A stretch of 52,193 nt of DNA. Source: a virus. Lineage: Duplodnaviria; Caudoviricetes. The translations under genes were made by a program, and so were the position numbers. The notes beneath the pieces are model-generated. The model was not told the origin of the DNA. It worked only from the letters and a program-made list of their open reading frames with translations, and did not search any database. The DNA lies in the IMG/VR virus record IMGVR_UViG_3300027863_000004, positions 1 through 52,193 of that record; one strand, given 5' to 3'. This document shows, in pieces, positions 1-52,193 of the stretch (positions are counted from its first letter, which is position 1; every line of letters begins with the position of its first letter).

Positions 1-127
1 AACTCCGATGGAATGGTATGACTTTTCTGGTATATTCGGCGGGTGGGTTGATGGTAAAGGTTATCATTTAGCACACGAGGCTTCATATACTGGTCAACCA
101 CCTTTTTACTTTCCTTACAGGTCTTCC
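1..127. repeat. Terminal direct repeat (assembly circularisation overlap), copy 1
   Basis: 1-127 is identical to 52067-52193. The length of 127 matches a common maximum assembler k-mer, and an ORF reads through the junction. Confidence 0.95.
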
Positions 128-24706: not shown

Positions 24707-25184
24707 AAAGCCATCACCAAATCAAAGTGAAAGATTACTTGGTAGTGTTACGAATGTGATAGTTCTTCACACCACAGAAGGCGATGCAAAAGGAGCATTA
24801 TCATGGCTGACAAACCCCGAGAGCAAAGTTAGCGCTCACTTTCTGGTTACACGCGATGGAACAATCTACAAACTTGTTCCCACCACAAGAAAGGCGTGGC
24901 ATGCAGGTAAGAGCAGGCTTGGTGTATGCAATCAAGTGAACAACATTTCAATTGGCATTGAGATTGAGAGTTATGAAGGAGCGCGTGATTATCCAGATAA
25001 GCAACTTGAGGCGCTTGCGTGGCTCATATGGCAAATCATGAAGAACAATCCAACACCGATTTCCACAATCACTACACACAAAGACATTAGCATTGCAGGC
25101 AAACAAGACCCTGTTGACTTTCCCTACTTGCGGTTCTGGAAAATATTCGCTAAAGTTGTGTGTAGAGAGGAGGGCATTAAGTGA
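24693..25184 (+). CDS. N-acetylmuramoyl-L-alanine amidase (Amidase_2) endolysin
   Basis: IVLHTTEG, VSAHF, AWHAG, SIGIEIE and H...K.DP zinc-amidase motifs. Confidence 0.92.
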   Translation: MKVIEKPSPNQSERLLGSVTNVIVLHTTEGDAKGALSWLTNPESKVSAHFLVTRDGTIYKLVPTTRKAWHAGKSRLGVCNQVNNISIGIEIESYEGARDYPDKQLEALAWLIWQIMKNNPTPISTITTHKDISIAGKQDPVDFPYLRFWKIFAKVVCREEGIK

Positions 25185-25984
25185 AGAAGTCAAAAGAAAC
25201 ACTCGTTGCCCTGATTAGCGATACACACATTGGTAAACTTACGTCCTCGTTCAATGTGGAGAGGGCACGCAAGATGATGGAGCGATGGATGGACAAGATA
25301 CTGCGCATCAAGGAGCTGCTTGGCAGTGGATACATCTTTGATGAATTAGTGGTGGCATCACTTGGAGACATCAATGATGGCACAGAGATTTATGCCACGC
25401 AACCACATCATCAAGCCATCACGAATGTCCTCTTACAGGCAGAAGTTGCAGCTGACATCATTGCCACACAGATAAAGCGCGCCCATGAGCATTTTAAGAA
25501 CATTACCTTTGTAGGTGTAGCAGGCAATCATGGGCGTGCTGGCAAGAGGGCGCATGAGGCAGCCAACTGGGACATTGCGACATATAAGTTCATGAAGGCG
25601 ATGCTACCCAAAACGAGGGTTGTGATAAATGAGCATGATGATTTTTTGATGGTGCACAAAGTTAAGGGGCATGGGTTACTACTTTACCATGGGCATTACA
25701 TTAGGATGTATGCGCAAGTTCCTTGGTATGGGATAATCACCAAAGTGTTGAAATGGGCGCAAAGTGTGAGGGATGGATGGCGCGTGGCATGTTTTGGTCA
25801 TTTTCATAGTTGTGGATACACGCAGTTAAATGGCATAGACATATTTTTGAATGGGACGCTTGTGACGGATGATTTGTATCCGATGATGACGCTTGGTTTG
25901 TTGTCGTCAAACAAATGGTGGTTGTTTGGCGTATCAGAGAGGCATCCAACGACGTTCAAGTTTGACGTAGACCTTGAGCGCTAA
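25181..25984 (+). CDS. Calcineurin-like metallophosphoesterase
   Basis: SDTHIG, LGDIND, GNHG, YHGH and GHFH motifs. Confidence 0.9.
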   Translation: MKKSKETLVALISDTHIGKLTSSFNVERARKMMERWMDKILRIKELLGSGYIFDELVVASLGDINDGTEIYATQPHHQAITNVLLQAEVAADIIATQIKRAHEHFKNITFVGVAGNHGRAGKRAHEAANWDIATYKFMKAMLPKTRVVINEHDDFLMVHKVKGHGLLLYHGHYIRMYAQVPWYGIITKVLKWAQSVRDGWRVACFGHFHSCGYTQLNGIDIFLNGTLVTDDLYPMMTLGLLSSNKWWLFGVSERHPTTFKFDVDLER

Positions 25985-29125: not shown

Positions 29126-30016
29126 ATGACAGGATACCCTGGCGGGAAATACTTCTTTGCAAGATGGATTATCTCTCATTTCCCGCCAGGGTATGAAAAT
29201 TTAATGTATGTGGAAGTGTTTGGTGGCATGGGTTGGGTATTGCTGAAGAAAAAGCCAAGTAAAATTGAAGTGTTCAACGACATCAATGGTGACATAGTCA
29301 CTGTGTTCACTCAAGTGAGAGATAACACTGAAGAGCTACAGCGCTGGCTGTTTTGGACACCATACTCAAGAACTCTCTTTAGAGTGCTACAGACAAAGTG
29401 GAAAAACCGTGAATTTAAAAATGACCTTGAAAGAGCTGGCATATTTATCTACTTGTTATGCACATCTTATGGTGGTAAATACTACTCAACATTCACTGCA
29501 CCTGGGAAAAAGGTAAACACATATAGACCATTCACTCCAATAGCAGGCTATAACTCACTCATAGACAACCTCACTCACATAGCACATAGGCTAAGAAATG
29601 TCATCATTGAAAACCTTGACTATCGTGAGCTACTTTCAAAGTATGACACTCCAAACACTTTGTTCTACTTAGACCCACCATACCTTGGCAGAGAATACTA
29701 TGGTTGCCCTATCTGGACTGAAGATGATTACATTGAGTTACATAGCCACATAACCAAACTACAAGGAAAATGGATACTTTCTCATGATGAACATCCATTT
29801 GTTGAGGAGCTGTTCAAAGACTACTATTGTGTGCGGAAAGAAAGACGCTTGTCACTTGATAAGGAAAGGCGAAAAAAGGCGGTTGAGTTGTTGTTCATGA
29901 ATTACGCACCAACCAAGCCAATTGAATTTGCAAGCACATTTATATTATGGGAGAGCCAAGCCTCTCTCCTCAATCCACAACACCAAAGGGGGGATAAAGT
30001 ATGGGATTGCAGGTAA
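29126..30016 (+). CDS. Dam-family (D12-class) N6-adenine DNA methyltransferase
   Basis: YPGGK, YVEVFGGMG, EVFNDIN, IENLDY and FYLDPPY motifs. Confidence 0.93.
   Translation: MTGYPGGKYFFARWIISHFPPGYENLMYVEVFGGMGWVLLKKKPSKIEVFNDINGDIVTVFTQVRDNTEELQRWLFWTPYSRTLFRVLQTKWKNREFKNDLERAGIFIYLLCTSYGGKYYSTFTAPGKKVNTYRPFTPIAGYNSLIDNLTHIAHRLRNVIIENLDYRELLSKYDTPNTLFYLDPPYLGREYYGCPIWTEDDYIELHSHITKLQGKWILSHDEHPFVEELFKDYYCVRKERRLSLDKERRKKAVELLFMNYAPTKPIEFASTFILWESQASLLNPQHQRGDKVWDCR
29922..29951 (+). promoter_or_regulatory. Promoter-like motif TTGAAT-N18-TATGGG
   Basis: Same motif class as 25996 and 38943; inside the MTase 3' end, upstream of the AAA_24 gene. Confidence 0.55.
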
Positions 30017-34703: not shown

Positions 34704-34774
34704 GGATTTTCATGTTAAGCTATTTTGTGAAGCTAAACCAAACTAAACTAAACTAATGTGCGGAGGTGAGCGTT

Positions 34775-35479
34775 ATGGAGATAATGGAAAAGGCGAAAAA
34801 GCAGTGGGAATTAGTAGAGAGGTGCATACGGGATTGTCGGCGAGTATACCTGTTCGGCCCCCCGGGCGTGGGAAAGACACATTGCGCTCGGGAAATGTTA
34901 GGGAAGCTCGGATTACAGGCATGGCGGGTAGTCCTCAACGAAGACATTGCGGTTCAGGAACTGCTGGGCATGTTTATGCCCAGGTCGGGAGAATTCGTAT
35001 GGATGGACGGGCCTTTTGTAATGGCGATGCGCAAAGGGGGTTTAATTATAGACGAAATTCACCGAGCGTCAGGTGCCGTTCTTGATATGCTATTGGGAGT
35101 GTTAGACGATAACCCGTCGGGTGTAAGTTTACCGACGGGGGAAACTATTGCTCCTCATTCTCATTTTCGGGCGGTCGCTACTGCCAATGTGCCGCCCGAC
35201 GGGCTGGATGCGGCGCTGGTGGATAGGTTTGAGACCGTTTTGTGCGTCAGCTACCCGCATCCTCAGCTCGTCGAGGTGCTGAACCAGCAAATTGAAGGCT
35301 TAGGGACGTTTGTCCTGAAGTCTTACGAAGATGAGAACCCCGTGTCGCCGAGGCGGGCACTCAATTTTGCCCGCCTCGTGCGCGAATGGCGGTGGAACGA
35401 GACAGATGCTGCGAGAGTTACATTTGGCGATGAGCGCGCAGAGGAACTACTTGCGGCGTTGGCGATAAGTAAGGCGTAA
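34775..35479 (+). CDS. MoxR/CbbQ/NorQ-like AAA+ ATPase (AAA_5)
   Basis: GPPGVGKT Walker A, FVWMDGP, LIIDEI Walker B, FRAVATAN, ALVDRF and SPR motifs. Confidence 0.9.
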   Translation: MEIMEKAKKQWELVERCIRDCRRVYLFGPPGVGKTHCAREMLGKLGLQAWRVVLNEDIAVQELLGMFMPRSGEFVWMDGPFVMAMRKGGLIIDEIHRASGAVLDMLLGVLDDNPSGVSLPTGETIAPHSHFRAVATANVPPDGLDAALVDRFETVLCVSYPHPQLVEVLNQQIEGLGTFVLKSYEDENPVSPRRALNFARLVREWRWNETDAARVTFGDERAEELLAALAISKA

Positions 35480-39689: not shown

Positions 39690-40202
39690 TTAGTTCACAC
39701 TTTGTGGCAAGTTGGGGTATGGAAACTTCATTTGGTTTGCTCTAATTGTGTCAAGTTCTATGTTATGGAGTTCTTCTTGTGATGGTTTTTTGAGCACGAT
39801 ATAGCGTATGACTTTTCCATACACTTGGAAGGCTGAGACCCAACCGTAGTATCGGCTATCGTAAGAGAATGGGTGTTCGCCGAGCACCCAGATTTTGTCA
39901 CCTTGTTTAGCGACCACTCTTTTGACGATGTGCAAGATTTTGTCGCCGTCGGTAATTCTCACATCAACCAAGTCACCGATTTTGATGTCTTCAATGTCTT
40001 TATAACTTTCAAAGTGATATCGTTTCAAAAGTGCGATACTGAATGCACCCAATGTTTTATACATTGAAAGTCCGCGCGCTAAAACTGGTGTGTAATGGTA
40101 ATCCATGATTAGAGTAAAGGAGCATGACAAAGCAAGGCAAATACAAAACAAGACAATTTTGCGTTTTATTCTCACATACTCGTTTCTACTCATTTCCTTC
40201 AA
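39690..40202 (-). CDS. S26 (signal peptidase I-like) Ser-Lys peptidase
   Basis: N-terminal TM, GLSMYKTL (catalytic Ser), IVKRVVA (catalytic Lys), and SYDSRYYG. Confidence 0.85.
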   Translation of the reverse strand: MKEMSRNEYVRIKRKIVLFCICLALSCSFTLIMDYHYTPVLARGLSMYKTLGAFSIALLKRYHFESYKDIEDIKIGDLVDVRITDGDKILHIVKRVVAKQGDKIWVLGEHPFSYDSRYYGWVSAFQVYGKVIRYIVLKKPSQEELHNIELDTIRANQMKFPYPNLPQSVN

Positions 40203-40766: not shown

Positions 40767-41031
40767 GGAAGATATTCACCGCCAACTCAACAGCAAGGTT
40801 GATTTGGCGCTTCGTAAGTTGTTTGCCCTTTTCTTTGAGCAATGCCTCAAGCGCCTTCTTCGCTTCTTCAAACTTTTGTGCATTTGTATACGGCTTCTTG
40901 TCAAGTTGCTCCACAATCGCAAGTAACACATCTTTTAGGTCACCGACTAAGTATTCAAGTGACCTTTCCATGTAGCGTCTGAGGAAGTATTTTTCAATTG
41001 ACTTGAACACTTTCTTAAGCGTCATTTTCAT
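40738..41031 (-). CDS. LL-H-family holin-like protein
   Basis: KFEEAKKALEALLKEKGKQLTKRQINLAVELAV resembles the LL-H holin C-terminal motif; the TM segment is weak. Confidence 0.5.
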   Translation of the reverse strand: MKMTLKKVFKSIEKYFLRRYMERSLEYLVGDLKDVLLAIVEQLDKKPYTNAQKFEEAKKALEALLKEKGKQLTKRQINLAVELAVNIFHEVLERIGK

Positions 41032-41299
41032 CGCCTCCTGATGGCAATGGTATGATTATCTCATCTGGTGTCACAATCATGAACTCATGTTCACCAATGA
41101 AGCCAAGCTTTTTAGCAGAATGCATCGTCAATTTGGCAGCATATACGAATATCGTGCCATAAAATTGCACTCTAACCCAATCAACGATTTCGTCAACGAT
41201 GTATGCCATAAACAAGTCCCATGTGAATTTAATCTCGCTCCATATTCTCTTCAACAGTGACATCAATGACACCTTCCTTTTTCTTCTCTCGTGCGCCAC
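41015..41299 (-). CDS. Hypothetical protein with hydrophobic segment
   Basis: ORF in the leftward operon. Confidence 0.5.
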   Translation of the reverse strand: MAHERRKRKVSLMSLLKRIWSEIKFTWDLFMAYIVDEIVDWVRVQFYGTIFVYAAKLTMHSAKKLGFIGEHEFMIVTPDEIIIPLPSGGDENDA

Positions 41300-41759
41300 C
41301 TGATTGTAGTATTTTGAACCGAAGCACCGTTTGTTGCAAATCTGTTGTGCCTTGATAGCATGGATGGCGTGCTTGCAAGAACTTTATCGCTGCAGTAGTG
41401 TCGTCTTGCAATGCACGCTCAATGAGCTTGCGCTCTATCCTGAGCGCCCAAAAGTCAAAATAGTTCCTGATGGCTTGCGCAACCTCAGGGTAGATTTGCA
41501 CAAGCTCATCTATGTCCGATTTAGATATACCATACTCTTGCATGATGTCATCAAGGAAGAAGCCCTTCCTTAACCCTCCTATGATGACATCACGCGCTTC
41601 TTCTTTTGTTAAAGCGCATTTTGTATTGGCGAGTGCCAGCCCAACTTCAATCTTGCTTACACACGAACACGCTTCTTTGGAAGGAGCTTGTTCGGACCCT
41701 TCCCGCCCTTTGAGGCTACCTTCTTCTCTTTCGGTGAGCACTTCTTCTTCGGCATGCAT
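41229..41759 (-). CDS. terS: Terminase small subunit-like HTH protein
   Basis: HTH (IMQEYGISKSDI..YPEVAQAI) followed by IERKLIERAL..DTTAAIKFL, a common TerS pattern; SD GGAGGG on the minus strand. Confidence 0.6.
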   Translation of the reverse strand: MHAEEEVLTEREEGSLKGREGSEQAPSKEACSCVSKIEVGLALANTKCALTKEEARDVIIGGLRKGFFLDDIMQEYGISKSDIDELVQIYPEVAQAIRNYFDFWALRIERKLIERALQDDTTAAIKFLQARHPCYQGTTDLQQTVLRFKILQSGGAREKKKEGVIDVTVEENMERD

Positions 41760-41804
41760 GCTCTCCCTCCTTTGCGTTACACTTAGATTAAGGGTGATGA
41801 AACA

Positions 41805-42596
41805 ATGCTTATGCTCACTGACATTGACAGCCTAAAGCGCTTCCTCATGAATGCAAGTATAGCGCAACTACAGCAACTTGTAAAGCAGTCAAAGACACAA
41901 ACATGGATTGTCCATGCGCTACTTGTTGATGCAATTGATAACCGCGACGATATAGACGAGGAACAGAAGAAGAAGTTGCTTCATGAGGTTGGCTCACGCT
42001 ACAAGCTCTATCAACTGCGCGTCGTCTACAAAGTCTTTGGTGCAATACCAGAGAGCTACAGTGCACCAATGACATCGCTCTTTTGTTTGCACATGTTATG
42101 TCCTGATGAGCCACCTGAGAAGCTTATTCCATACGCTTACATGAAGACTTCGGCGCACTGGACAAAACTCTATAGGCAATATCGGTGTGCTGCTAAGCAA
42201 AAGCTCACTATCAGTGACATTGAAGCAACATTAGATGGGTTTGTGAAGACGACAAGGAGCGTAGCAATTTCAAGGCAACACCTTGCCGACCTTATTATCA
42301 CTTCATTTAACACGCCACTTTCGTTCGCCTCATTTATTGCCTATGTTGTGTTCAAAATGCGTGACAAATTGCGTGAATGTGGGTATAGCACATTAACAGC
42401 GTCGCAACTTTGGGTGCTCATTACAAGGCGCATCTTGATTGAGAAGGTGAACTTGGTTGGTGTGAAGATTGAAATTGACGATAGCATTTGGGATGACATT
42501 GAGGCGATAATAGAAGCGACCGCTGAAAGGAAATTGAACACATTCAATGGAAAGCCACTGGAGGTGTATGCACAAGATGATGCAGAAGGAGATTGA
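41805..42596 (+). CDS. Hypothetical protein, first gene of the late operon
   Basis: 263-aa ORF overlapping terL. Confidence 0.6.
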   Translation: MLMLTDIDSLKRFLMNASIAQLQQLVKQSKTQTWIVHALLVDAIDNRDDIDEEQKKKLLHEVGSRYKLYQLRVVYKVFGAIPESYSAPMTSLFCLHMLCPDEPPEKLIPYAYMKTSAHWTKLYRQYRCAAKQKLTISDIEATLDGFVKTTRSVAISRQHLADLIITSFNTPLSFASFIAYVVFKMRDKLRECGYSTLTASQLWVLITRRILIEKVNLVGVKIEIDDSIWDDIEAIIEATAERKLNTFNGKPLEVYAQDDAEGD

Positions 42597-43956
42597 GCTA
42601 ACACCGAAGCAGGCAATGTTTGTGCAGGCACGCCAGCCTGTGTGCATTTACATTGGTGGATGGCGTGCTGGAAAGACTTTTGCAGGGTGCTGTAAGGTGC
42701 TCCATTACATCTTACAAAATCCAGGTGCATGTGTCTTAGTGGGCAGGAAGACATACAGGGAGCTATATGATACAACGCGTGCAACATTTATGCAAATCCT
42801 ACCACCTGACTGGCTCAAGATGTATAAGCACTCAGAAGATAAAGCGGTGATACAGCCAAGTCGTGATGACCCACCTTCAATTGTCCTTTTCAGGGCGCTG
42901 GATGAGTTTCAAAAGTTTGGCTCACTTGAGCTTGCAGCATGCTATATTGATGAAGCCACTGAGTTCAAAGACGATAGCATTTTCAACTTCCTCATGGGTA
43001 GGTTGAGCCAGCGTGGCTACCCACCACAAATATGGCTCACCGCTAACCCTGCATCACCAACACATTGGCTCTATGAACGCTTTGTGAGCAGAGCTGGCGG
43101 CAGGGATGTGTATGAGGATGAGGAGCTATTCTTTTGTCGCTCACGCACTGTTGAAAACCCATTCATAGACCCTGCCTATATTGAGCTACAGTTGAAACAG
43201 ATGCCAGCTAAGTGGCGTCAAAGATACTTAGAAGGTGATTGGGTTGAGCTTGAAGGCTATGAGCCAATCTTTCCCGAATACAACGAGGAGCATCGTGCAC
43301 ACAATTTAAGGGTGAGCCTCGCAGTGCCACTTTACCGAGGTTGGGACATTGGGCATGCACATCCTGCATGTGTGATTGCACAATGGCTTCCTGTGGCACA
43401 AAAGTTCAATGTGCTGTGGGCTGAGGTGCAGTCACACATGTGGATGGGCGACTTCCTTAAGTATGTTGAAACTGTGACACATGTCCTTATGAGTGAGGCA
43501 TTAGCTAATGCAGACCCAACTTCAGTAGTATGGGGCGCACGCTTTTCAATCATTGATGTTGCAGGGCATGATGCAAAAGCTCATTATCCAACTTCGGACA
43601 AAAGCGTCATTGAAATCTTTCGTGAGCATGGTATAACACTTCATACAGTGTATTCTAACATGCTTGATAGAGTGCGAGCAATGCACGAACTTCTAAGCAA
43701 ACGCTCAAGAGAAGGTGGGGCAATGTTGCAAGTTGATGTTGAGCGCGCTAAAATAATTGACGATGGCTTTCGTGGTGGGTATTCTTGGAAGCCCACCGAT
43801 ACTGGAGAATTGAAAGTTGACACAAGGCATATTAGCGTTCATGCTATGGACGCGTTGGGTTTTATCATTCTTAAGGCGATGCCTTGGACATTGCGTGGCA
43901 CACAATCATCAGTGCCATTGATTGATGTGCCATCGCCAACATATGGGGTGATTTAA
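42577..43956 (+). CDS. terL: Terminase large subunit
   Basis: LTPKQ, GGWRAGKT Walker A, YIDEA Walker B, LTANP, ENPFI, GWDIG nuclease Asp, and HAMDALG. Confidence 0.95.
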   Translation: MMQKEIELTPKQAMFVQARQPVCIYIGGWRAGKTFAGCCKVLHYILQNPGACVLVGRKTYRELYDTTRATFMQILPPDWLKMYKHSEDKAVIQPSRDDPPSIVLFRALDEFQKFGSLELAACYIDEATEFKDDSIFNFLMGRLSQRGYPPQIWLTANPASPTHWLYERFVSRAGGRDVYEDEELFFCRSRTVENPFIDPAYIELQLKQMPAKWRQRYLEGDWVELEGYEPIFPEYNEEHRAHNLRVSLAVPLYRGWDIGHAHPACVIAQWLPVAQKFNVLWAEVQSHMWMGDFLKYVETVTHVLMSEALANADPTSVVWGARFSIIDVAGHDAKAHYPTSDKSVIEIFREHGITLHTVYSNMLDRVRAMHELLSKRSREGGAMLQVDVERAKIIDDGFRGGYSWKPTDTGELKVDTRHISVHAMDALGFIILKAMPWTLRGTQSSVPLIDVPSPTYGVI

Positions 43957-43958
43957 AA

Positions 43959-45803
43959 GTGCCACAAGAATGGCTTGACAAGAGTATGCCCGAGGTTGAA
44001 TTTGACGAAGGGCGCATATTGCCTGAAAGCTTCTATGTGAAGTTTGTTCAAGACTTACAGAGATGCTCCAAGAACTACCGTATGAACTGGGAGAATAGAG
44101 CAAAAGAGGCGTGGCGTGTTTACAGGCAGGAGTATGACTTTAGTGCAAAGCGCCCTTGGCAGGCAAAGACATACATTCCTAAGCTCACAAAGGCTGTTGA
44201 AGTTGCAGCAGCCATTTTGAAAGTCCTCACGGTGCAATCGCGAGCCTTCTTTAGCGTAGACCCAATAAGGAACACTCCAGTAGACCTTGACATTGCAAAA
44301 TCTATTGAGCGTGTGTTGTGGCATGTGCTTGAAGAAAATAGGTTTGTTGAGAGCTTCTATGAGGCGCTCATTGTTGGCTTAGTCACAGGCATGCTCGCCT
44401 ATAAGGTGTATTGGCATACAGAGCAGAATATTGAATGGCAGTTGTCGGCGCTTGGGTTGATGCCGAGTGTGAAAAATGTTGCAGGTGTAAGAATTGACTT
44501 AGTAGACCCGCTTGACCTTTACCTTGACTGGACTGGCAAAGATACATTTGCCATCCACGAGTTCTATCTTGAAGTTTCAACGGTGAAGGCGCTCGCAGAG
44601 ACTGGCTATTTTGACCCAGACAAAGTGAAGGAGCTAAAAGGTTCAGGGCTTGAAGATTGGGCAAAGACAAAGGGCACATTCATTCCAACATCGCCATATA
44701 AGAAGCATGTGAAGATTTGGGAATTTTGGGGCACGGTGACGGATGAAGATGGCAATATCATCCATCCAAACGCATATATGGTGATTGCAGACGAGGACAA
44801 GCTTCTAAGAGGACCGATACCAAACCCCTATGCGCCATTCAAACATCCATTCATTATTGCAGCTCCATTTTATAGACCATTCCTTGTCTACCACAAAGGG
44901 TTGGTGCATGATGCGATAGAGCTACAGCGTGCCTTGAATGAGTTCATGAACTTTATGATTGATGCATCACGCTACCATGCACTGCCAATCTTTGTTGTGC
45001 AACTTGATATGCTTGCAAGACCTGAAGATATCTTAGAAGGCATCATGCCAGGTAAGACTGTGCTTCTAAGTGGTGCAATACCACCGAATGCATCTCCAGT
45101 CACTGCAATCAATGTTGGTGGCATCACACAAGAGATTGTGAACATCTATGCAATCCTTGAGCGTGAGATACAGAATGCGACTGGAATTACAGAGCTTTTG
45201 ATGGGCACACAAAGTGCGCGCGGGCGTCCCACTGCAACTGAGATTGTGACTGGTAGAGAGCAAGCTACAGCGCTTGTTGAAGTTATTGGACGAAACATTG
45301 AAGACCAATTACTTGAGCCACTACTTCAACGCATTTGGGTTATCCTCACACGCTTTAGAGACCAAGTCACAGATGAAGAGTTGAAAGAACTGCTTGACAA
45401 GATTGAAGAGTATGCACAAGAGCTTGAAGACCCAAGTGAGGTATGGACGCGCCCTTACAAGTTTAGAGCGCGTGGTATAACGACGATAATGCAACGCGCC
45501 GCACAGATTAACAAGCTTGCGAGTTTCTTACAACTCATACAGGCGTTCCCAGATGCAACACTTGCCATTAAGTGGTATAATCTACTTGTGGAAATGATTA
45601 AGTCGCTTCAGTGGCAACCTGATGAAGTGCTCATACCTGAAGAAGAATTTGAAGCAAAGAGACAGCAAATGATGATGATGCAACAGATGATGGCAATGTT
45701 GCAACAGGCAAGCAAGGGTAAAAAGAGAGGCAGTAAAAGGGCACAAGAGCGCCCTGGCACAATGACAGAAGCCATCGGTGGCGAAATGCCACGCACCGAG
45801 TAA
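43959..45803 (+). CDS. Portal protein (podovirus type)
   Basis: 614 aa directly after terL; DPLDLYLD, KIWEFWG, LQRALNE and TATEI motifs. Confidence 0.88.
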   Translation: MPQEWLDKSMPEVEFDEGRILPESFYVKFVQDLQRCSKNYRMNWENRAKEAWRVYRQEYDFSAKRPWQAKTYIPKLTKAVEVAAAILKVLTVQSRAFFSVDPIRNTPVDLDIAKSIERVLWHVLEENRFVESFYEALIVGLVTGMLAYKVYWHTEQNIEWQLSALGLMPSVKNVAGVRIDLVDPLDLYLDWTGKDTFAIHEFYLEVSTVKALAETGYFDPDKVKELKGSGLEDWAKTKGTFIPTSPYKKHVKIWEFWGTVTDEDGNIIHPNAYMVIADEDKLLRGPIPNPYAPFKHPFIIAAPFYRPFLVYHKGLVHDAIELQRALNEFMNFMIDASRYHALPIFVVQLDMLARPEDILEGIMPGKTVLLSGAIPPNASPVTAINVGGITQEIVNIYAILEREIQNATGITELLMGTQSARGRPTATEIVTGREQATALVEVIGRNIEDQLLEPLLQRIWVILTRFRDQVTDEELKELLDKIEEYAQELEDPSEVWTRPYKFRARGITTIMQRAAQINKLASFLQLIQAFPDATLAIKWYNLLVEMIKSLQWQPDEVLIPEEEFEAKRQQMMMMQQMMAMLQQASKGKKRGSKRAQERPGTMTEAIGGEMPRTE

Positions 45804-45828
45804 TAATGTATTCAGGAGGTGATATTGC

Positions 45829-46050
45829 ATGCCTAAGCAGGAAGTCATTGAAGAGAACCCATTGGAAGGTGTAAAGCGCATTGGCTACAATGTCACTGTG
45901 AATGTGCTCCCACCAATTGATGATGTGGAAGAGAAGAGGGCGCGCGTTAAAGAGAACACCGCATTCAATGAGCCACTGCGCCCTGCATCACCATGGCTAA
46001 AGAGGCATCGTGCACGCATAAAAGCCAAACGCGCAAAGGAAGGTGATTAG
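45829..46050 (+). CDS. Small protein with basic C-terminus
   Basis: SD GGAGGTG. Confidence 0.65.
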   Translation: MPKQEVIEENPLEGVKRIGYNVTVNVLPPIDDVEEKRARVKENTAFNEPLRPASPWLKRHRARIKAKRAKEGD

Positions 46051-46051
46051 G

Positions 46052-46306
46052 ATGCCTCGCAAGACGAAAAGGCGCAAAGGTAGTGCAAAAAGAAAAGCTA
46101 CACTGGCGTCAAAGGAAATCCAAAAGCTCCTTCGTGAATACAAAAGAACTGGTAAAATGACAACTTCGCGTGCGACATATCGCCCTCGCAATTTGGAGCA
46201 CGCGCGCAAAATCGCGGCTGCCATTGCATATGGCAAACATGGTTTAGGTAAAGCAGGTGCAAGGAAGCGTGCAAAGAAGGCGTCTAAAAAGCGTAAGAAG
46301 AGGTGA
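46052..46306 (+). CDS. Lys/Arg-rich small protein (resembles DUF6496-type phage basic proteins)
   Basis: REYKRTGK...KIAAAIAY core with basic tails. Confidence 0.7.
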   Translation: MPRKTKRRKGSAKRKATLASKEIQKLLREYKRTGKMTTSRATYRPRNLEHARKIAAAIAYGKHGLGKAGARKRAKKASKKRKKR

Positions 46307-46312
46307 ACTATA

Positions 46313-46621
46313 ATGCCACGACGAAGACAAGCACAAGTGCCACCAACGCCACCAATGCCACCTATGGGCATACCTGGTGGTTTGCCGTTAGACATACTTG
46401 GTGGCATCATGCCTACGGGCATGTTTCCACCAGCAATGCCTGAAGAAGCAGGAGAGCCAGCGCGCAGGCGTAGCAGGGCTACGAAGCGCGCAAGGACAAC
46501 AAAAAGAAATGCAGCAACAAGGACAAGGCGTAGGCGAGCTACAAAAGAAAGGAAGAGAAGAAGGGCTACTACAAGAAGAACCCAAAGAAGAACAACAAGG
46601 AGAAGGACAAGAAGGCGGTGA
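46313..46621 (+). CDS. Protamine-like protein with Pro/Met/Gly-rich N-terminal half
   Basis: The last 52 aa contain 26 Arg and 4 Lys interspersed with Thr/Ala; SD GAGGTG. Confidence 0.7.
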   Translation: MPRRRQAQVPPTPPMPPMGIPGGLPLDILGGIMPTGMFPPAMPEEAGEPARRRSRATKRARTTKRNAATRTRRRRATKERKRRRATTRRTQRRTTRRRTRRR

Positions 46622-46627
46622 TAAATC

Positions 46628-46861
46628 GTGCCAGCGCTCACATCTAAATTGCTTGCTCGTGGCTTAGCAGTGCCAAAGTTGGCGCGTGCACGCAAGCCAA
46701 GAAAGCCAAGGAAGCCACGCCTAAAAAAGATACGCATGCCAAAGCTAAAGTCATCAATTAGAGGTGTGCGCTTATCCACCAAAAAGAGAGGGCGCACCAA
46801 GCTACCTAAACTAAAGGGGCTTAGACGGGCAACGCGTATAACCGCGCGTATAACATCCTAA
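46628..46861 (+). CDS. Lys/Arg/Pro-rich histone-H1-tail-like protein
   Basis: RKPRKPRKPR repeats and no acidic residues in 77 aa. Confidence 0.65.
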   Translation: MPALTSKLLARGLAVPKLARARKPRKPRKPRLKKIRMPKLKSSIRGVRLSTKKRGRTKLPKLKGLRRATRITARITS

Positions 46862-46876
46862 TAGGGGGTGATTGTA

Positions 46877-47644
46877 ATGCGTTACAAAGTCGCGTTATCT
46901 TTCGTTGTAGGGATGGTGATTGGTATGGTTGTAGCATATGCAAACACGCTTGATGAGCTTGTAAAGTGCACATGGTCACTTGAGAGCACATCAGCGCGTG
47001 GCACTGGCACATTGTTTAAGTCACCTAAGGATGGCAAGTGGTATTTCCTGACTGCAGGGCATTGTGTTGAAGACTTGCGTTCCGAGCAAAAGGAAGTCGG
47101 TCCTGAAGGCAAGGAGATTATAAAGGAGAAGTGGGAAGACGCATACATTGTTCAAAAAGTGACCGCGCTTGTTGATGACATTGAAACTGAAGTTGGCACA
47201 ATAAGGCTTCGTGCTAAAGTTGTTGCCTATAGCAAGTTTGAAGACGAAGACCTTGCGTTGCTTGAAGTGTATGCTATGCCATTTGAAGCAGTTAGTGCGC
47301 AGTTTGCACCACCAGATTTGCAACTCCAGCTTGGAGAGCAAGTCTGGCATGTGGGCAACTTGCGTGGTGAATTGACCGCGTCATTAACTGCAGGTCATAT
47401 CAGTGCAGTTGGGCGCATTTACAAGTCAAAGCCATTCATTCAAACAACAACTGTTGCAGTGCCTGGGTCGTCTGGTGGTGGAATTTATGTTCAGCGCGAT
47501 GGTAAATTCTACTATGTGGGCATGATAACGCTTGGTGATGCACAGGCAAGTAACATCAACTTTGCAATTCCGTTCCAGCGCATAAGGAAATGGTTGCACA
47601 AAGTCGGGTATGCACATGTGATAGGTGATAAGGATGAGCAATAA
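46877..47644 (+). CDS. Trypsin-like (S1) serine protease with predicted Sec signal peptide
   Basis: TAGHC, DLALL and PGSSGGG catalytic triad motifs; N-terminus MRYKVALSFVVGMVIGMVVAYA|N. Confidence 0.9.
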   Translation: MRYKVALSFVVGMVIGMVVAYANTLDELVKCTWSLESTSARGTGTLFKSPKDGKWYFLTAGHCVEDLRSEQKEVGPEGKEIIKEKWEDAYIVQKVTALVDDIETEVGTIRLRAKVVAYSKFEDEDLALLEVYAMPFEAVSAQFAPPDLQLQLGEQVWHVGNLRGELTASLTAGHISAVGRIYKSKPFIQTTTVAVPGSSGGGIYVQRDGKFYYVGMITLGDAQASNINFAIPFQRIRKWLHKVGYAHVIGDKDEQ

Positions 47645-47855
47645 CCTAATTGAAGCGCTGTTTGATGAGCAAAAGTATCAATTTCTAAAGGAGACACTGC
47701 CATCGTGGCTATTTGACCATTTCAAGAGAGTTGCGTTACAATATATTCATGACTGGCTTTCTGGCAAGCGTGATGAAAAAGAAGTGCGCATTGCACTTGA
47801 AACACTTGTGTCGTATCATCAAACATTGGCGCTAATTCTTAAATCGGAGGTGTAA
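47634..47855 (+). CDS. Hypothetical protein
   Basis: Small ORF upstream of the scaffold gene. Confidence 0.6.
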   Translation: MSNNLIEALFDEQKYQFLKETLPSWLFDHFKRVALQYIHDWLSGKRDEKEVRIALETLVSYHQTLALILKSEV

Positions 47856-47858
47856 AGC

Positions 47859-48638
47859 ATGGCTTGGTATGACGAAGAAGAGCGTGAAGAAGAACAACAA
47901 GAACAACAAAATGAGGTGACTGAGAAGTTGGAACAGATACAGCAACAGTTGAATGAATGGCAAAGACAGCTATTGCAAAGTGTGCAACAACAGCCACAGC
48001 AACAGCCACAGGTGCAACAACCATATTATCAATTTCAATCAACGCCACCTGTGGCACAACAGCCACAACAAGGCATTGATGAAAGTGTGTATGAGCAGTT
48101 GAGTGAGCTCCTTCATGAAAATCCGAAGGAGTTTGTGAAGGCATACACACAAGTGGTTCAAAATCAACTACAACAGACTTTGGGTATGGTATATAGAACA
48201 GTGGCAGAGTTAAATGCATGGCGACAGCAGTTGCAGTTGCAACAGCTTGCACAACAGTTTTATGCTACCTATCCAGACCTTGTTGGCTTTGAGACGATTG
48301 TGCAAGCTGCTGCACAAAAAGTGTATCCACAGAAGACATGGACGAATGCACAAGAATACTTCCAAGCCGTCGCCGAAGAGGCACGGCGCATGATTAAGGA
48401 GATTGCAGAAAAAGCAGGTGGTAGGGTTGAGGCTCGTAGTAGGCTTCAACCTGCAGGCTTGCCTGCTCAATCTGGAATAACATCATCAGCTGTGACACAG
48501 CCATCAACGCCTTCACCAGAATTTGTGGAGGCGATGATGGAGAACCTTAACAAACAGTTTGTAGACGAACTTGAAAAAATAGTCAGGCAAAAGAGGAGTT
48601 CACCTCCGCCTCCAGTGACGCCATCGCGTCGGCGCTGA
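47859..48638 (+). CDS. Putative capsid scaffolding protein
   Basis: Acidic/Gln-rich helical protein immediately before the MCP. Confidence 0.7.
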   Translation: MAWYDEEEREEEQQEQQNEVTEKLEQIQQQLNEWQRQLLQSVQQQPQQQPQVQQPYYQFQSTPPVAQQPQQGIDESVYEQLSELLHENPKEFVKAYTQVVQNQLQQTLGMVYRTVAELNAWRQQLQLQQLAQQFYATYPDLVGFETIVQAAAQKVYPQKTWTNAQEYFQAVAEEARRMIKEIAEKAGGRVEARSRLQPAGLPAQSGITSSAVTQPSTPSPEFVEAMMENLNKQFVDELEKIVRQKRSSPPPPVTPSRRR

Positions 48639-48722
48639 TGGCACACTGGTAGCACATCGTTGTGTGACACTGGCGAGGTGAGTGCTCCAAGAAATTCCTG
48701 CATTACGCAGGGGTGATAGAGC

Positions 48723-49682
48723 ATGCCAGCGCAAGTTTACGGTGTGCCAAGACTTGGTGGAGTGCTCGCCTTGCCATCGCTAACTGCTGAAGTTCGCAAG
48801 GCAGCACTACCACGATTTGTCTTTCGTCAATTTGTCCGCCCAGTTCAGGGCTATGGCAAAAACAAGGGCGATGAAATTCGTTTCCCACGCCGTAGCGGTC
48901 TGGCTGGGTCAGGGCGCAGGCTGGCTGAGACCGAGCTCATCCCAGTCACAGGGTTCACGATTGATTACGGAACCTTGCTTGTGGATGAGTATGGCAATGC
49001 AGCAGCCTGCACACTCAGGTTGACAACCTTAGCCGAGATTGACATCCAGCCACATATCGTTGATGCTTTGCGCGACGACATTGTGGCTACGATGGACAAG
49101 GAGATTGCTGCAGTTGCCAAGAAGACGAAGATAAAGTATGTTCCTACATCCTCAACAGGTGGCGTGTTCCTTACCAATGGTGAATTCAAGGACAGCCAAG
49201 GCAACCCCGTCGTAGCTACAAGTAACTTGACAACGGCACATGTCAAGGACATTGTTGATTACCTGCAAGGTTACTTGCATGTGCCAGGCTATGACGGTGA
49301 GAACTATGTCTGTATCCTGACGACCAAAGCACGCCGAGGCATCATTGATGACAGCAACTTTGTGCAAGCTGCCCACTACGGCGACCCAGAGCGTCTATTC
49401 AGGTATGAGATTGGCTTGCTTTACAACACAAGGTTTGTGCACTGCAACAACCCAGACGCTCTGAACAATGCCGTTGGGCAGAATGGCGTGCTTGGTGAGG
49501 CTCTGTTCCTTGCCGACGACCCACTTGTTGAAGGCGTTGCTCTGCCTGAGGAAATCAGGTCAGAGACGCGCGACTTGGGTCGTCAGACAGTCATTGGCTG
49601 GATTTACATGGGTGGTTGGGCGCTCACTTGGGATAGCAACAAGCCTGGTGAGTGCCGTGTAATCCATGTTGGCTCTGCATAA
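48723..49682 (+). CDS. Major capsid protein (HK97 fold, N4-gp56-like)
   Basis: GKNKGDEIRFPR, EYGN, YEIGLLYNTRFV and DLGRQTVIGW motifs; follows the scaffold gene. Confidence 0.85.
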   Translation: MPAQVYGVPRLGGVLALPSLTAEVRKAALPRFVFRQFVRPVQGYGKNKGDEIRFPRRSGLAGSGRRLAETELIPVTGFTIDYGTLLVDEYGNAAACTLRLTTLAEIDIQPHIVDALRDDIVATMDKEIAAVAKKTKIKYVPTSSTGGVFLTNGEFKDSQGNPVVATSNLTTAHVKDIVDYLQGYLHVPGYDGENYVCILTTKARRGIIDDSNFVQAAHYGDPERLFRYEIGLLYNTRFVHCNNPDALNNAVGQNGVLGEALFLADDPLVEGVALPEEIRSETRDLGRQTVIGWIYMGGWALTWDSNKPGECRVIHVGSA

Positions 49683-49702
49683 TCAGCAGGGGGTGATAAG
49701 TA

Positions 49703-50077
49703 ATGCCATACAGCGAACAACACAAGGTGCATAAGGTTATCTTTTTCAATGTGGATACGACAAGCACGGCAAAAGTCGTTGATGCCGTGATGCCAGCGCC
49801 CATCGTCTTGAAAGGTATACAGTCTGTGGCTGCTACTGCGGGCACTGCGAATGCCAGTATTGTCATACAGGTTGACGGGACTACAGTTGCCACTGTCAAT
49901 GTCCCTGCCAATGGCGTTTTTGCAACCAACCTTAATGTCGTTGTAAAGGCAGGGCAGAAACTTACAATCCAAGGCAGTGGCACAACTGGCGGTCCTACCG
50001 TCACCTGTTGGCTCTGGTGGCGTGACCACTTTGACCCAGAGCAGCTCACAGGCGATTACGGGTGGGTTGGCTGGTAG
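49703..50077 (+). CDS. Putative capsid decoration/minor capsid protein
   Basis: Beta-rich 124-aa ORF co-transcribed with the MCP, before the terminator. Confidence 0.5.
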   Translation: MPYSEQHKVHKVIFFNVDTTSTAKVVDAVMPAPIVLKGIQSVAATAGTANASIVIQVDGTTVATVNVPANGVFATNLNVVVKAGQKLTIQGSGTTGGPTVTCWLWWRDHFDPEQLTGDYGWVGW

Positions 50078-50102
50078 TAACCAACTGCTAATGCTTGAAG
50101 AT

Positions 50103-50148
50103 AGAGTGCCAGCCTGACGCCATAAGTGGCGTGGCTGGCACTCTTTGT
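50103..50148 (+). terminator. Terminator after the capsid genes
   Basis: agagtgccagcc..acgcca-taag-tggcgt-ggctggcactct followed by tt. Confidence 0.7.
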
Positions 50149-50167
50149 ATATGTGAGGTGGTAAATC

Positions 50168-50386
50168 ATGCCACTACAATGGAAAGAACCACACGAGATT
50201 ATCACGACACGCCCATTTGGCAGGATTTACCACCAACGGGGCAAATTTTTCTATCCAGATGGCAGTGAGATTTATGATGTAGAGCTCATCATCAAGATGC
50301 TCCAAGAGCATTCGCATTGGCGTAAGAAGGCTGAAGAGCTTGCAAAGAAGCACAAACTCACGCATATCCTAAAAGCGAGGTGGTAA
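50168..50386 (+). CDS. Hypothetical protein
   Basis: SD GAGGTGG; YHQRGKFFYPDGSEI resembles YYQDGKVYAENGEEI in the next gene. Confidence 0.65.
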   Translation: MPLQWKEPHEIITTRPFGRIYHQRGKFFYPDGSEIYDVELIIKMLQEHSHWRKKAEELAKKHKLTHILKARW

Positions 50387-50388
50387 AA

Positions 50389-50769
50389 ATGGCGCTTGAT
50401 ACAACTAAGCCTTATATGATGTTCAAGAGCGTGGACACACCAATGTTGTATTACCAAGATGGTAAAGTGTATGCTGAGAATGGTGAGGAGATACCTAAGG
50501 AAAAGGTTGTAGAAATCATTTCGCCAATAGATGCACCATTGCTTTACAAGCTACTTGACCTAATCAGTGATGAAGATTATAAGCTAATTTGCACTCTCAA
50601 TGCACAAGAGAGCATGCAAGCATTCGGTGTGGTTATCACGCCAGAGGAACTGGAAGAAACTGTCCTCTCGTTAATTGAAGAAGAGGGCATACATCAAGAA
50701 ATTGTAAAGAAGGCAATTGAGCTATTGCGCAAACAGAAAGAAGGCAAGAAAAGGAGGGTTAAAGCATGA
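50389..50769 (+). CDS. Hypothetical protein
   Basis: SD GAGGTGG. Confidence 0.65.
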   Translation: MALDTTKPYMMFKSVDTPMLYYQDGKVYAENGEEIPKEKVVEIISPIDAPLLYKLLDLISDEDYKLICTLNAQESMQAFGVVITPEELEETVLSLIEEEGIHQEIVKKAIELLRKQKEGKKRRVKA

Positions 50770-51458
50770 CAATTGGCGAATGTTTAGAGCAAGTCAAGCG
50801 CAACATAAGCTTTGAAGCACCACAAGTTGAAGACAGTTTACTTTTTACAGCCAATGCAGTTATGAGGCGCATTGAGCGCATGTTTGATTGGAGCTTTGAA
50901 TACACCGTTGAAGCAACAAAGACACAAGATGCTCAAGGCAACCCAACTAAGATTTTGCCATTACCCACAGGTTGCAAGCGCTTGCTCTACATCACCTATC
51001 CAATTGAAGACCCACAGTCGCCCATCATCATTGCAAGCTATGTGAGTGATGAGTTTTATCTTTCACGGACATCGCCATCGTTTCAAAAAGAACAAGGACG
51101 ACCCCGAGGCTTCCTTTTGAGAGCAGACCATATTGAGCTTGTGCCAACGCCTGACAAGGTTTATGACATCTTCTTGCACTACTACAAGTGGCTTCCTGAG
51201 TTTACATCGCTTCAAGATACAAACGCACTCATCCAGAATTATCCAGATATGGTTGTTGAATTCATCACAGCTCAGGTGCTCTTTCAACTTGGTGAAACAC
51301 AAGAGGCAATGGTATGGGAACAAAAAGCAACGCTCAAGCTAAATGAAGCAATCAGGCATGATAAGATGCTTAGAGTGTCACAGCCTGCATACATTGAGCC
51401 ATTGCCACCACAACCATCATTAAGTGCACTTGAGCGCTGGAAAGTCACCTTTGAATAA
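50766..51458 (+). CDS. Head-tail adaptor (tail tubular protein A-like)
   Basis: GRPRGF...IELVPTPDKVY...YY pattern and position before the nozzle gene. Confidence 0.7.
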   Translation: MTIGECLEQVKRNISFEAPQVEDSLLFTANAVMRRIERMFDWSFEYTVEATKTQDAQGNPTKILPLPTGCKRLLYITYPIEDPQSPIIIASYVSDEFYLSRTSPSFQKEQGRPRGFLLRADHIELVPTPDKVYDIFLHYYKWLPEFTSLQDTNALIQNYPDMVVEFITAQVLFQLGETQEAMVWEQKATLKLNEAIRHDKMLRVSQPAYIEPLPPQPSLSALERWKVTFE

Positions 51459-51470
51459 GGTGGGGATAAA

Positions 51471-52193
51471 ATGAGATGGCAAATAGAAGCACATCAACTA
51501 ACATATGGCATGGATTACAACCTACCTAATCTTGGTGTGCCACCATCAAACCCTATAGACCTTGTTAACCTTGTCCCTATGCCTCACTTGAAGTCACAAT
51601 GGGGATGGGTTAAGGTTGGTGACCTACACAAGCCCACTGTAGACTTAGGCAATCCACAAGAGCAACCAGCTTACTTGCTCAATGTCATTGGCAATGTGAT
51701 TTGCTACATACCACGAGCATATGATAACAATGAAAAGTCTCACATTGGAAAGGAAGCAATCGCGTTCATGGTAGTGCCATTGCCTTCAAGGTTTGGTGAT
51801 GGCATTACATACGACCCAAACACGGGGCAATACATTGGTGCATACCATAGCAAGTTCAACCTTTACAACTACTTCATTTCCGATACAGAAGTGACACAGA
51901 GATTAGTAGCTAATAGCGCTGAGGGGTATTTTGAAGCATCTTGGGTGTATGTCATGGGTTACAGAGTTTATTCCTTCCCACCAATGTGCCCAACACCATC
52001 AGCGCGTGTCATCTATCCAACAATTCAATTTGTGTCATCAGCAACTGTGCTTGATAGCACTTCAGGAACTCCGATGGAATGGTATGACTTTTCTGGTATA
52101 TTCGGCGGGTGGGTTGATGGTAAAGGTTATCATTTAGCACACGAGGCTTCATATACTGGTCAACCACCTTTTTACTTTCCTTACAGGTCTTCC
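51471..52193 (+). CDS. N-terminal part of putative tail nozzle protein (continues across the junction to 1192)
   Basis: ATG 51471 after SD AGGTGGGG; no stop to the window end; in frame with MEWYDFSG at 52074, which corresponds to position 8. Confidence 0.8.
   Translation, partial: MRWQIEAHQLTYGMDYNLPNLGVPPSNPIDLVNLVPMPHLKSQWGWVKVGDLHKPTVDLGNPQEQPAYLLNVIGNVICYIPRAYDNNEKSHIGKEAIAFMVVPLPSRFGDGITYDPNTGQYIGAYHSKFNLYNYFISDTEVTQRLVANSAEGYFEASWVYVMGYRVYSFPPMCPTPSARVIYPTIQFVSSATVLDSTSGTPMEWYDFSGIFGGWVDGKGYHLAHEASYTGQPPFYFPYRSS
52067..52193. repeat. Terminal direct repeat, copy 2
   Basis: Identical to 1-127. Confidence 0.95.

Follow-up and report, generated by a model that had tools for sequence, protein, structure and literature searches.

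In the textbook view, the charge of a phage genome is neutralised by polyamines and metal ions alone. In the head of phage T4, about 1000 molecules of internal proteins accompany the DNA, their lysines touching its phosphates (PMC3012670), and internal proteins occur in other phages too (PMC7697877). In phiX174, each replicative-form DNA molecule is covered by about 120 copies of protein J, and the virion structure shows the packaged genome being led by J between DNA-binding pockets of the capsid (PMC13386984). The DNA-binding protein gp7 of SPP1 is targeted in few copies to the procapsid interior through the portal (PMC6316719). Here we analysed a 52,193-base IMG/VR record (the window, taken at its full length), classed there as having direct terminal repeats and representing the complete genome of an uncultured tailed phage. 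In its head-gene block lies a cluster of small open reading frames (ORFs), A to D, of which B, C and D are extremely basic. We propose, tentatively and with slightly less than even confidence, that B, C and D bind DNA and, shut into the head with it, act as its protein counter-ions, with B folded and conserved and C and D lineage-specific polycations. DNA binding by these tiny proteins is probable, and they may travel inside the capsid. The original prediction for this cluster had started from the premise that tailed phages package naked DNA, which is too simple in view of the T4 internal proteins (PMC3012670).

The cluster is made up of four genes, given with their lengths in amino acids (aa):

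45829-46050 (+): ORF A, 73 aa, net charge +4, with a basic C-terminal tail; first in the chain, with the Shine-Dalgarno (SD) sequence AGGAGGTGAT.
46052-46306 (+): ORF B, 84 aa, net charge +30; a conserved core (residues about 20-69) between poly-Lys/Arg tails.
46313-46621 (+): ORF C, 102 aa with 29 Arg; N-terminal half rich in Pro, Gly and Met, C-terminal half rich in Arg and Thr.
46628-46861 (+): ORF D, 77 aa, net charge +29, GTG start; no acidic residue, three copies of RKP, and (L/M)PKLK motifs.

The charge of ORF B comes from 19 Lys and 14 Arg, set against 3 Glu and no Asp. In ORF C, residues 1-50 contain 14 Pro, 7 Gly and 6 Met and end in EEAGEPA, and the last 52 residues contain 26 Arg, 12 Thr and 4 Lys. 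ORF D has 14 Lys, 15 Arg and 7 Pro, no Asp or Glu, and the run RKPRKPRKPR. Net charge per residue is 0.36 for B, 0.27 for C and 0.38 for D, ranks 1-3 among 57 ORFs; the other 54 have a mean of 0.010, a standard deviation (sd) of 0.068 and a maximum of 0.184. By our own arithmetic, random gene order would bring the three most basic genes together with a chance of about 0.002. An extended SD match ((A)GGAGGTGAT-like, 6-10 letters) is located 4-9 nucleotides (nt) upstream of all four starts and resembles those of the genome's other genes. The genes are closely chained, with intergenic gaps of 1, 6 and 6 nt, the stop of A lying 1 nt before the start of B. The description of three consecutive, SD-led and extremely basic ORFs was thus borne out, in composition as in rank of charge. 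The position 45829 given as their beginning is, however, the start of A, a fourth ORF that had not been described and has a net charge of only +4. Their placement between portal and scaffold also stood, yet D is separated from the scaffold gene by two further ORFs, a serine protease of 255 aa and one of 76 aa.

To judge the reading frames, we used a near relative (locus L001), whose portal is 99% identical in protein and about 92% in DNA. All four ORFs are kept in it. Synonymous codon changes outnumber non-synonymous ones in A (23 to 5), B (20 to 5) and D (20 to 6); C evolves faster than these three, with 13 synonymous and 21 non-synonymous changes, and its indels (3 and 6 nt) are in frame. 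D starts at one site, with GTG in the window and ATG in L001. Because of the strong SDs, the chained starts, the synonymous excess in A, B and D, the in-frame indels of C and the GTG/ATG switch of D, the sequences argue firmly that A to D are real genes read in the + frames. B, C and D were also seen to share one reading frame, separated by stops (TGA after B, TGA TAA after C) and 6-nt spacers, and the common frame persists in L001 despite the indels. Read-through fusions of B, C and D are conceivable, given that B-like modules occur inside polyproteins elsewhere.

The opposite strand of the same region is also open:

45997-46800 (-): antisense open frame of 267 codons across B to D; judged to be a shadow ORF and not a gene.

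If C and D were not real, this frame might encode a hydrophobic protein, or the stretch might be non-coding, a reading that we find barely credible. The antisense stretch is open over 286 codons in the window and 334 in L001, and its synonymous and non-synonymous counts between the two (48/42) are close to those of the B/C/D sense frame (53/34); these counts are similar because both frames share the wobble position, so that the comparison cannot separate them. Against the antisense reading, the frame has a TTG start and no SD, and its orientation opposes the + strand of all surrounding head genes. When the sense proteins were recoded synonymously 5000 times, the frame stayed free of stops in 415 cases, and a shadow frame is therefore not rare for such a composition. 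Of 11 more distant B homologues, 9 have the matching frame interrupted. Over 78 pairs of the B core, the ratio of non-synonymous to synonymous variation (pN/pS) was 0.37 in the sense frame and 0.50 in the antisense one; the four remaining frames gave 1.1 to 1.5. By these comparisons the sense frame of B is secure. Those of C and D are supported by gene signals, operon strand and in-frame indels, and the available sequences cannot formally separate them from the antisense frame. Conservation of frame in relatives, which had been named as a check, thus held for B, and for C and D it could not tell the two strands apart.

We then examined the B family. Of 41 candidates from a word-based search, 35 proteins were homologous at E <= 1; most have a length of about 72 aa, and their identity to B is 51-94%. 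An exhaustive profile search gave 89 representative clusters at E <= 0.001, 12 of them at E <= 1e-10. The core consensus, EIxKLxREYKxTGKMTTSRATYRPKxxxHAQKIAAAIAYGKHGVGRAG, is flanked by Lys/Arg runs at both ends. The family alignment has 13 invariant columns, and invariant positions are concentrated in a hairpin and the helix after it (T38, S39, R40, A41 and P45); Y43 of the hairpin is invariant as well. An AlphaFold model of B, made with the family alignment, was confident (mean pLDDT of 84.6) and showed a helix (5-33), a hairpin (36-43) and two further helices (48-63 and 66-83). Two copies predicted as a homodimer with the family alignment scored 0.00 against a mark of 0.42, and a PDB sequence search with the family profile reached a best E of 0.39.

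B itself matched nothing in Pfam, PHROG or NCBIfam (PHROG threshold E <= 0.1), and tblastn of GenBank phages with B also gave no match. In a protein atlas the clusters nearest B were those of DUF6496 (PF20106), with a score of 0.86 that we take as a lead only. DUF6496 had no match in the window at E <= 10, so that B is not a member, and it was absent from the family matches of all 35 homologues. Below its curated cut-off of 24 bits, it scored on three distant relatives, with 16.8 bits on L017 and 21-22 bits on 2 of 88 representatives. Distant relatives found by tblastn and profile share the pattern MPLKKGSS...GKIGTSKP...KQAAAIAYSKAG. The 14 proteins scanned included 9 B homologues, of which 5, all distant relatives, matched PHROG 2423 (6e-10 to 7.5e-5), and four close-family members had no match to it at E <= 0.01. 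The Pfam family HC2 of histone H1-like bacterial nucleoproteins did not match B, C or D at E <= 0.1; it scored 25.9 bits, against a cut-off of 40, on the tail of one distant B relative (P0086). The literature searched for DUF6496 yielded nothing. We consider B to be probably a separate branch of the superfamily that includes DUF6496 and PHROG 2423, and a member of neither. Both consist of small proteins, mostly from phages, and are of unknown function, and the kinship therefore adds no mechanism. B belongs to an undescribed family and is not low-complexity filler.

Scans with the B-family alignment located 43 viral loci, 34 metagenome loci and 6 contigs labelled as metagenome-assembled genomes (MAGs). 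Thirty-six of the viral loci have an upstream ORF of at least 150 aa, and in 19 of them it belongs to portal families. The remainder comprised one tail-fibre protein, one DNA-ejection protein, one match to PHROGs of unknown function (the giant ORF of L009) and 14 ORFs without a match at 1e-5. In the close family (TSRATY type), the downstream genes usually encode an acidic scaffold-like protein and then a capsid protein. In five loci (L009, L061, L062, L068 and L087), B follows a giant ORF and precedes exonuclease and/or ATP-grasp genes; an exonuclease-type metallophosphoesterase in three of them is 40-41% identical to that of the window, and the ATP-grasp homologue in all five is 29-33% identical. 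Judged by gene order, dozens of other uncultured phage contigs link the B family to virion gene blocks. The look of nucleic-acid-binding polycations, the frames and the head-assembly setting claimed for the cluster were accordingly upheld by composition, SDs and this virion context.

Some features of these loci were recorded alongside. A conserved 137-aa ORF (MWVKQFKKFLIRLLMDKEIE...) is present in L008, L011, L055 and L057 between a putative portal and B (for example at 5550-5963 of L011); the putative portal is a 671-aa ORF without a PHROG match in L008 and L011 and is truncated in L055 and L057. Elsewhere, B homologues directly follow giant ORFs of 1650-1985 aa, which have no tblastn link to the 4694-aa ORF of the window. 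The only B-family matches in species-representative genomes (L085-L090) are on short contigs of Aenigmatarchaeota, Armatimonadota and Patescibacteria/Parcubacteria MAGs. Most probably these contigs come from phages and were binned along with cellular DNA, so that they indicate no host.

Whether B is followed by a second small polycationic ORF was scored at 56 loci with enough downstream sequence, after removal of loci with identical B cores. The ORF had to be at most 120 aa long, with at least 25% Lys plus Arg and a net charge of at least +10, and to start between 25 nt before and 80 nt after the B stop; positions after long ORFs of the same loci served as the control. Such an ORF was found at 18 of the 56 loci, in comparison with 30 of 360 control positions. 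Nearly all were in the close family (16 of 31 loci, versus 2 of 25 in the distant family). The following ORFs belong to five unrelated sequence types: K/P-rich ones of about 80 aa, K/P-rich ones of 43-48 aa, two R/G/A-rich types, and C in the window's near relative. With only five sequence types, the 16 loci represent far fewer independent lineages. A homology between D and the K/P-rich followers was tried and rejected: a hidden Markov model (HMM) of six of them, the commonest type, scored D no better than shuffles of D, with 4.2 bits on the D of L001 and 8.4 on the best of 500 shuffles. By sequence, these followers and D would be positional and compositional analogues only.

The conservation of B proved to be decoupled from that of the structural proteins. 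Compared with the window, B is 45% identical in L014 and L073, where the portal is 31-32% and the capsid protein 40% identical. In L008, L010, L011 and L066, B is 63-76% identical, and there the portal gives short matches of 21-31% and the capsid protein short matches of 23-28%; those of L008 and L011 are not significant (E 0.08 to 2.2). In L054, L056 and L058, for which no portal was set, the values are 71-77% for B and 38-39% for the capsid protein. Taken together, B remains 63-77% identical where portal, scaffold and capsid proteins give short matches of 19-31% or none. It is thus unlikely, from these comparisons, that B depends on a co-evolving contact with structural proteins. Because B stays conserved while portal and capsid diverge beyond recognition, its conservation would fit a ligand common to all these phages, DNA being the obvious one; it would also fit frequent exchange as a self-sufficient module.

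B-like modules were also found in four long profile hits, P0068 (804 aa), P0078 (374 aa), P0120 (504 aa) and P0073 (232 aa). In all four, a repeated motif, AE[SDEG]F[EFD][AHF], occurs within about 25 residues of the module on at least one side. It is present 6, 2, 1 and 1 times in P0068, P0078, P0120 and P0073, respectively, and is absent from 124 other proteins compared. By analogy with the processed head proteins of large phages, the long forms look like modular polyproteins with linkers or cleavage sites. No viral loci were found for P0120 and P0068.

C and D differ from B in having few relatives. The search with C gave one homologous protein, from the near relative (E <= 1 among 989 candidates), and an atlas search with D gave no usable match. 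In 90 loci examined, A, C, D, the protease and the 76-aa ORF were found only in near relatives of the window. In the model of C (pTM 0.28), the N-terminal half lacks secondary structure (pLDDT 41-71) and residues 55-101 form one long helix; as modelled, C is not globular. In composition, D is taken to resemble the tails of histone H1 and repeats of the AT-hook kind. A single copy of B, of C and of D adds up to a charge of +87, against 104,386 phosphates in the genome. By our own arithmetic, neutralising one tenth of the DNA charge would take about 120 copies of each, which on the T4 analogy of about 1000 internal molecules would lie within range.

On the basis of these findings, we suggest the following course of events. 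A to D would be made late, together with the head proteins. B would be small and folded, its long helix leading to a conserved beta-hairpin rich in Thr, Ser, Arg and Tyr and to a second helix, with poly-Lys/Arg at both ends; C would provide a protamine-like Arg tail, and D a Lys/Arg/Pro composition like that of histone H1 tails. No fold was detected in these two polycations, C being the one modelled. The proteins would bind double-stranded DNA without sequence preference and be enclosed with the genome in the head as counter-ions, contributing about +29 each against the 104,386 phosphates. At ejection they would leave with the DNA, as do the T4 internal proteins or J of phiX174. The number of copies is presumed, and so is any gain in packaging, in stability or in shielding of the DNA as it enters.

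A bolder version of this proposal is that a lineage of tailed phages packages its double-stranded DNA as a true nucleoprotein, in which B and interchangeable polycations (C and D here, K/P-rich or R/G-rich ones elsewhere) are abundant in the capsid, offset much of the DNA charge and reach the host bound to the genome. The cluster would then be a counterpart of adenovirus pVII/mu or baculovirus P6.9, and the B fold a new small DNA-binding module common to many uncultured phages. We consider this stronger form unlikely.

Several observations weigh against enclosure of B, C and D in the head as DNA-binding counter-ions. The B model resembled no known DNA-binding fold: Foldseek gave no match at E <= 0.001 in PDB or BFVD, and the best VIA-align Z, 6.2, is in a range common for helical models. 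The L009-type placement away from capsid genes would fit a role in DNA metabolism too. About half of the close-family loci lack a second basic ORF, C and D are confined to this phage and three near-identical contigs, and the three-protein system as such is lineage-specific. CHP58 and MaAM05, distant relatives by their portals, have no such ORFs, and such genes are therefore not needed for this head type. In GenBank phage relatives, we found annotations only of hypothetical proteins, or unannotated stretches. Pfam and PHROG scans of the head block revealed no prohead protease of the T4 or HK97 type, and no capsid-targeting sequence was recognised, two sequences being too few to define such a motif.

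The cluster is embedded in the following genes of the head block:

42547-43956 (+): large terminase; first gene of the block.
43959-45803 (+): portal protein, 614 aa; Pfam SU10_portal at 1.1e-21, PHROG 332/1216/156; upstream boundary of the cluster.
46877-47644 (+): HtrA/DegS-like serine protease domain, 255 aa from ATG; Pfam Trypsin_2 at 2e-15; hydrophobic N-terminus MRYKVALSFVVGMVIGMVVAYA.
47625-47855 (+): 76-aa ORF without a Pfam, PHROG or NCBIfam family; 15 synonymous and 0 non-synonymous changes versus L001.
47859-48638 (+): scaffold-like protein, 259 aa, 49 Gln, net charge -9; placed before the capsid gene.
48723-49682 (+): major capsid protein, 319 aa; PHROG 1357 major head protein at 4e-13.
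50766-51458 (+): SU10-type adaptor, further downstream.

The + strand carries nearly all genes of the genome. The scaffold-like protein had no Pfam or PHROG assignment and is a putative scaffold by position and composition. The major capsid protein reached 23.9 bits with Pfam Phage_capsid, slightly below the cut-off of 24.2. An exact direct repeat of 127 bases is common to both ends of the window (1-127 and 52067-52193); most simply, it is the assembly overlap of a circular or circularly permuted genome, whose unique length would then be 52,066 bases. A promoter and terminator scan of 41000-52193 gave counts within about 1.3 sd of the shuffle means, and the head block as a DNA query against GenBank phages gave no match.

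The protease was inspected since processing of precursors had been predicted. Its nearest solved relatives are DegQ, HtrA, DegS and DegP, matches to the NCBIfam Do family are far below cut-off, and the His, Asp and Ser motifs of a chymotrypsin-fold enzyme can be read in its sequence. It has no PDZ domain and, among viral contigs, relatives in two near-identical loci only. Its N-terminus, which we read as a putative Sec signal or membrane anchor, suits an exported enzyme better than a prohead protease. Head proteins of the cytoplasm are unlikely substrates for an enzyme that is exported, and precursor processing by this sole nearby protease found no support. The same holds for a phosphorylation switch: a Pfam scan of 46 other ORFs revealed no kinase domain, and the calcineurin-like metallophosphoesterase matches exonuclease families (PHROG 284 exonuclease, 8e-30). 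A protease of exported type is an odd occupant of a head module.

Other roles for the basic proteins have to be weighed with these data. They could act on DNA in the cytoplasm, compacting or marking replicated DNA or assisting the terminase, and not be stable components of the virion. The arguments from composition and from the B family serve this possibility equally, and the five loci in which B adjoins exonuclease and/or ATP-grasp homologues speak for it; so does the finding that no small terminase subunit was recognised upstream of the large one, where ORF 41805-42596 has no family, together with a small-terminase cluster among the structural neighbours of B in the atlas (TM 0.50, below the bar). 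Most loci, however, place B in a portal-scaffold-capsid run and not in a replication module, and the fused forms with repeated linker motifs resemble structural polyproteins, so that we judge a purely cytoplasmic role to be unlikely, if the foremost of the alternatives. Rather less likely still is that B is a low-copy head accessory bound to portal or scaffold in the manner of SPP1 gp7, holding the DNA end or releasing it at ejection, with C and D as unrelated add-ons. B does share with gp7 its gene position directly after the portal, and a portal gene lies upstream in 19 of 36 loci. Yet the 63-77% identity of B beside barely alignable portals is not expected of a co-evolving interface, a tail-fibre-like gene and not a portal precedes B in L006, L054, L056, L058, L060 and L064, and neither B nor its 35 relatives had a Mu-F/gp7 match in Pfam.

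For C, D and similar ORFs a function in lysis was considered, as cationic peptides acting on the envelope, perhaps with the HtrA-like protease; the phage peptide gp28 of phiKT, 'disruptin', is cationic and disrupts the outer membrane (bioRxiv 10.1101/515445). The proteins are small and strongly cationic, some B followers (L007 and L056 type) look amphipathic, and the neighbouring protease has a secretion-type N-terminus and periplasmic relatives. The gene of disruptin is part of a lysis cassette, next to those of endolysin and holin, and its product acts on the outer membrane. Unlike disruptin, C and D lie in the head block, in the cluster at 45829-46861, 21 kb from the only recognised lysis gene, the amidase at 24669-25184; both contain much proline and arginine and few hydrophobic residues, and the link to B, scaffold and capsid genes recurs in lineages without the protease. 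A lysis function is very doubtful on this evidence. We regard as more improbable again a role in binding RNA, by which proteins with an arginine-rich motif would control late mRNAs or the translation of head genes. Arginine-rich helices commonly bind RNA, and the tail of C is modelled as one long Arg-rich helix. A conserved folded core among structural genes is nevertheless atypical of antiterminators, no family match points that way, and no RNA element was noticed, none having been searched for.

Elsewhere in the genome, several genes were noted. A 4694-aa ORF at 9168-23252 (+), without a Pfam or PHROG match, stands after tail-like genes and before the ATP-grasp gene, and may be a giant virion or ejection protein. 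It is followed, at 23249-25984 (+), by a row of three genes for a PurD-like ATP-grasp protein (TIGR00877, 65 bits, far below cut-off), an Amidase_2 endolysin-like protein and the exonuclease-type metallophosphoesterase. Peptidase_S26 matched at 39690-40202 (-) and 5665-7386 (+), with 5e-11 and 7e-7. The former is a 170-aa protein of the early region, at a guess a LexA/CI-like self-cleaving repressor, and the latter match is inside a tail-like protein. A D12-class N6-adenine DNA methyltransferase is encoded at 29126-30016 (+; 3.5e-24), and a MoxR/AAA_5-type ATPase at 34766-35479 (+; 1.5e-20).

Should B, C and D indeed be DNA-binding counter-ions of the head, charge neutralisation in some tailed phages would be achieved partly by dedicated protamine- or H1-like proteins. 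This would bear on packaging force, capsid pressure, particle stability and the first material that enters the cell. Proteins so rich in Lys and Arg would probably be shredded or missed in trypsin-based virion proteomics, and may have been overlooked in phages already studied. The B core, a well-defined and very conserved module of 50 residues, can be expressed directly.

With regard to known systems, B, C and D resemble IPI, IPII and IPIII of T4 in being small basic proteins encoded alongside head genes, the T4 proteins being enclosed in the head and ejected with the DNA (PMC3012670). A, B, C and D matched no model of Pfam, PHROG or NCBIfam, and so none of the IPI, IPII and IPIII families. 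The prohead protease of T4 cleaves off the capsid-targeting sequence. That sequence is conserved and serves the entry of the T4 internal proteins (PMC3012670), and none is recognisable in A to D. The DNA contacts are made by Lys in T4, whereas C is Arg-based, and a virion location of the window proteins is a prediction. J of phiX174 is likewise very small and very basic; many copies of it coat the DNA and accompany it into the capsid (PMC13386984). A sequence relation to J would not be expected. J belongs, however, to a single-stranded DNA phage of the Microviridae with a T=1 capsid and coupled synthesis and packaging, in contrast to the window phage, whose double-stranded DNA would be pumped by a terminase. 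The likeness of the C tail (26 Arg in 52 residues; 29 in 102 overall) to adenovirus pVII/mu and baculovirus P6.9 is one of composition, not of homology. All are small polycations, for which condensation of viral double-stranded DNA is known or proposed. Those proteins are from eukaryotic viruses, and their virion location and their processing or phosphorylation are established; the protease of the window is HtrA-like, unlike adenain-type or prohead-type enzymes. SPP1 gp7, which is Mu F-like, is larger, of another family and targeted in few copies by a specific contact with the portal, from which the conservation of B is decoupled. The literature searched, with subscription journals outside, held no description of such proteins in tailed phages in titles and the beginnings of abstracts. 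Internal basic head proteins are thus known as a kind; what appears to be new, as far as the sequences tell, is the B family, its decoupled conservation, and an Arg tail of protamine grade in the head block of a tailed phage.

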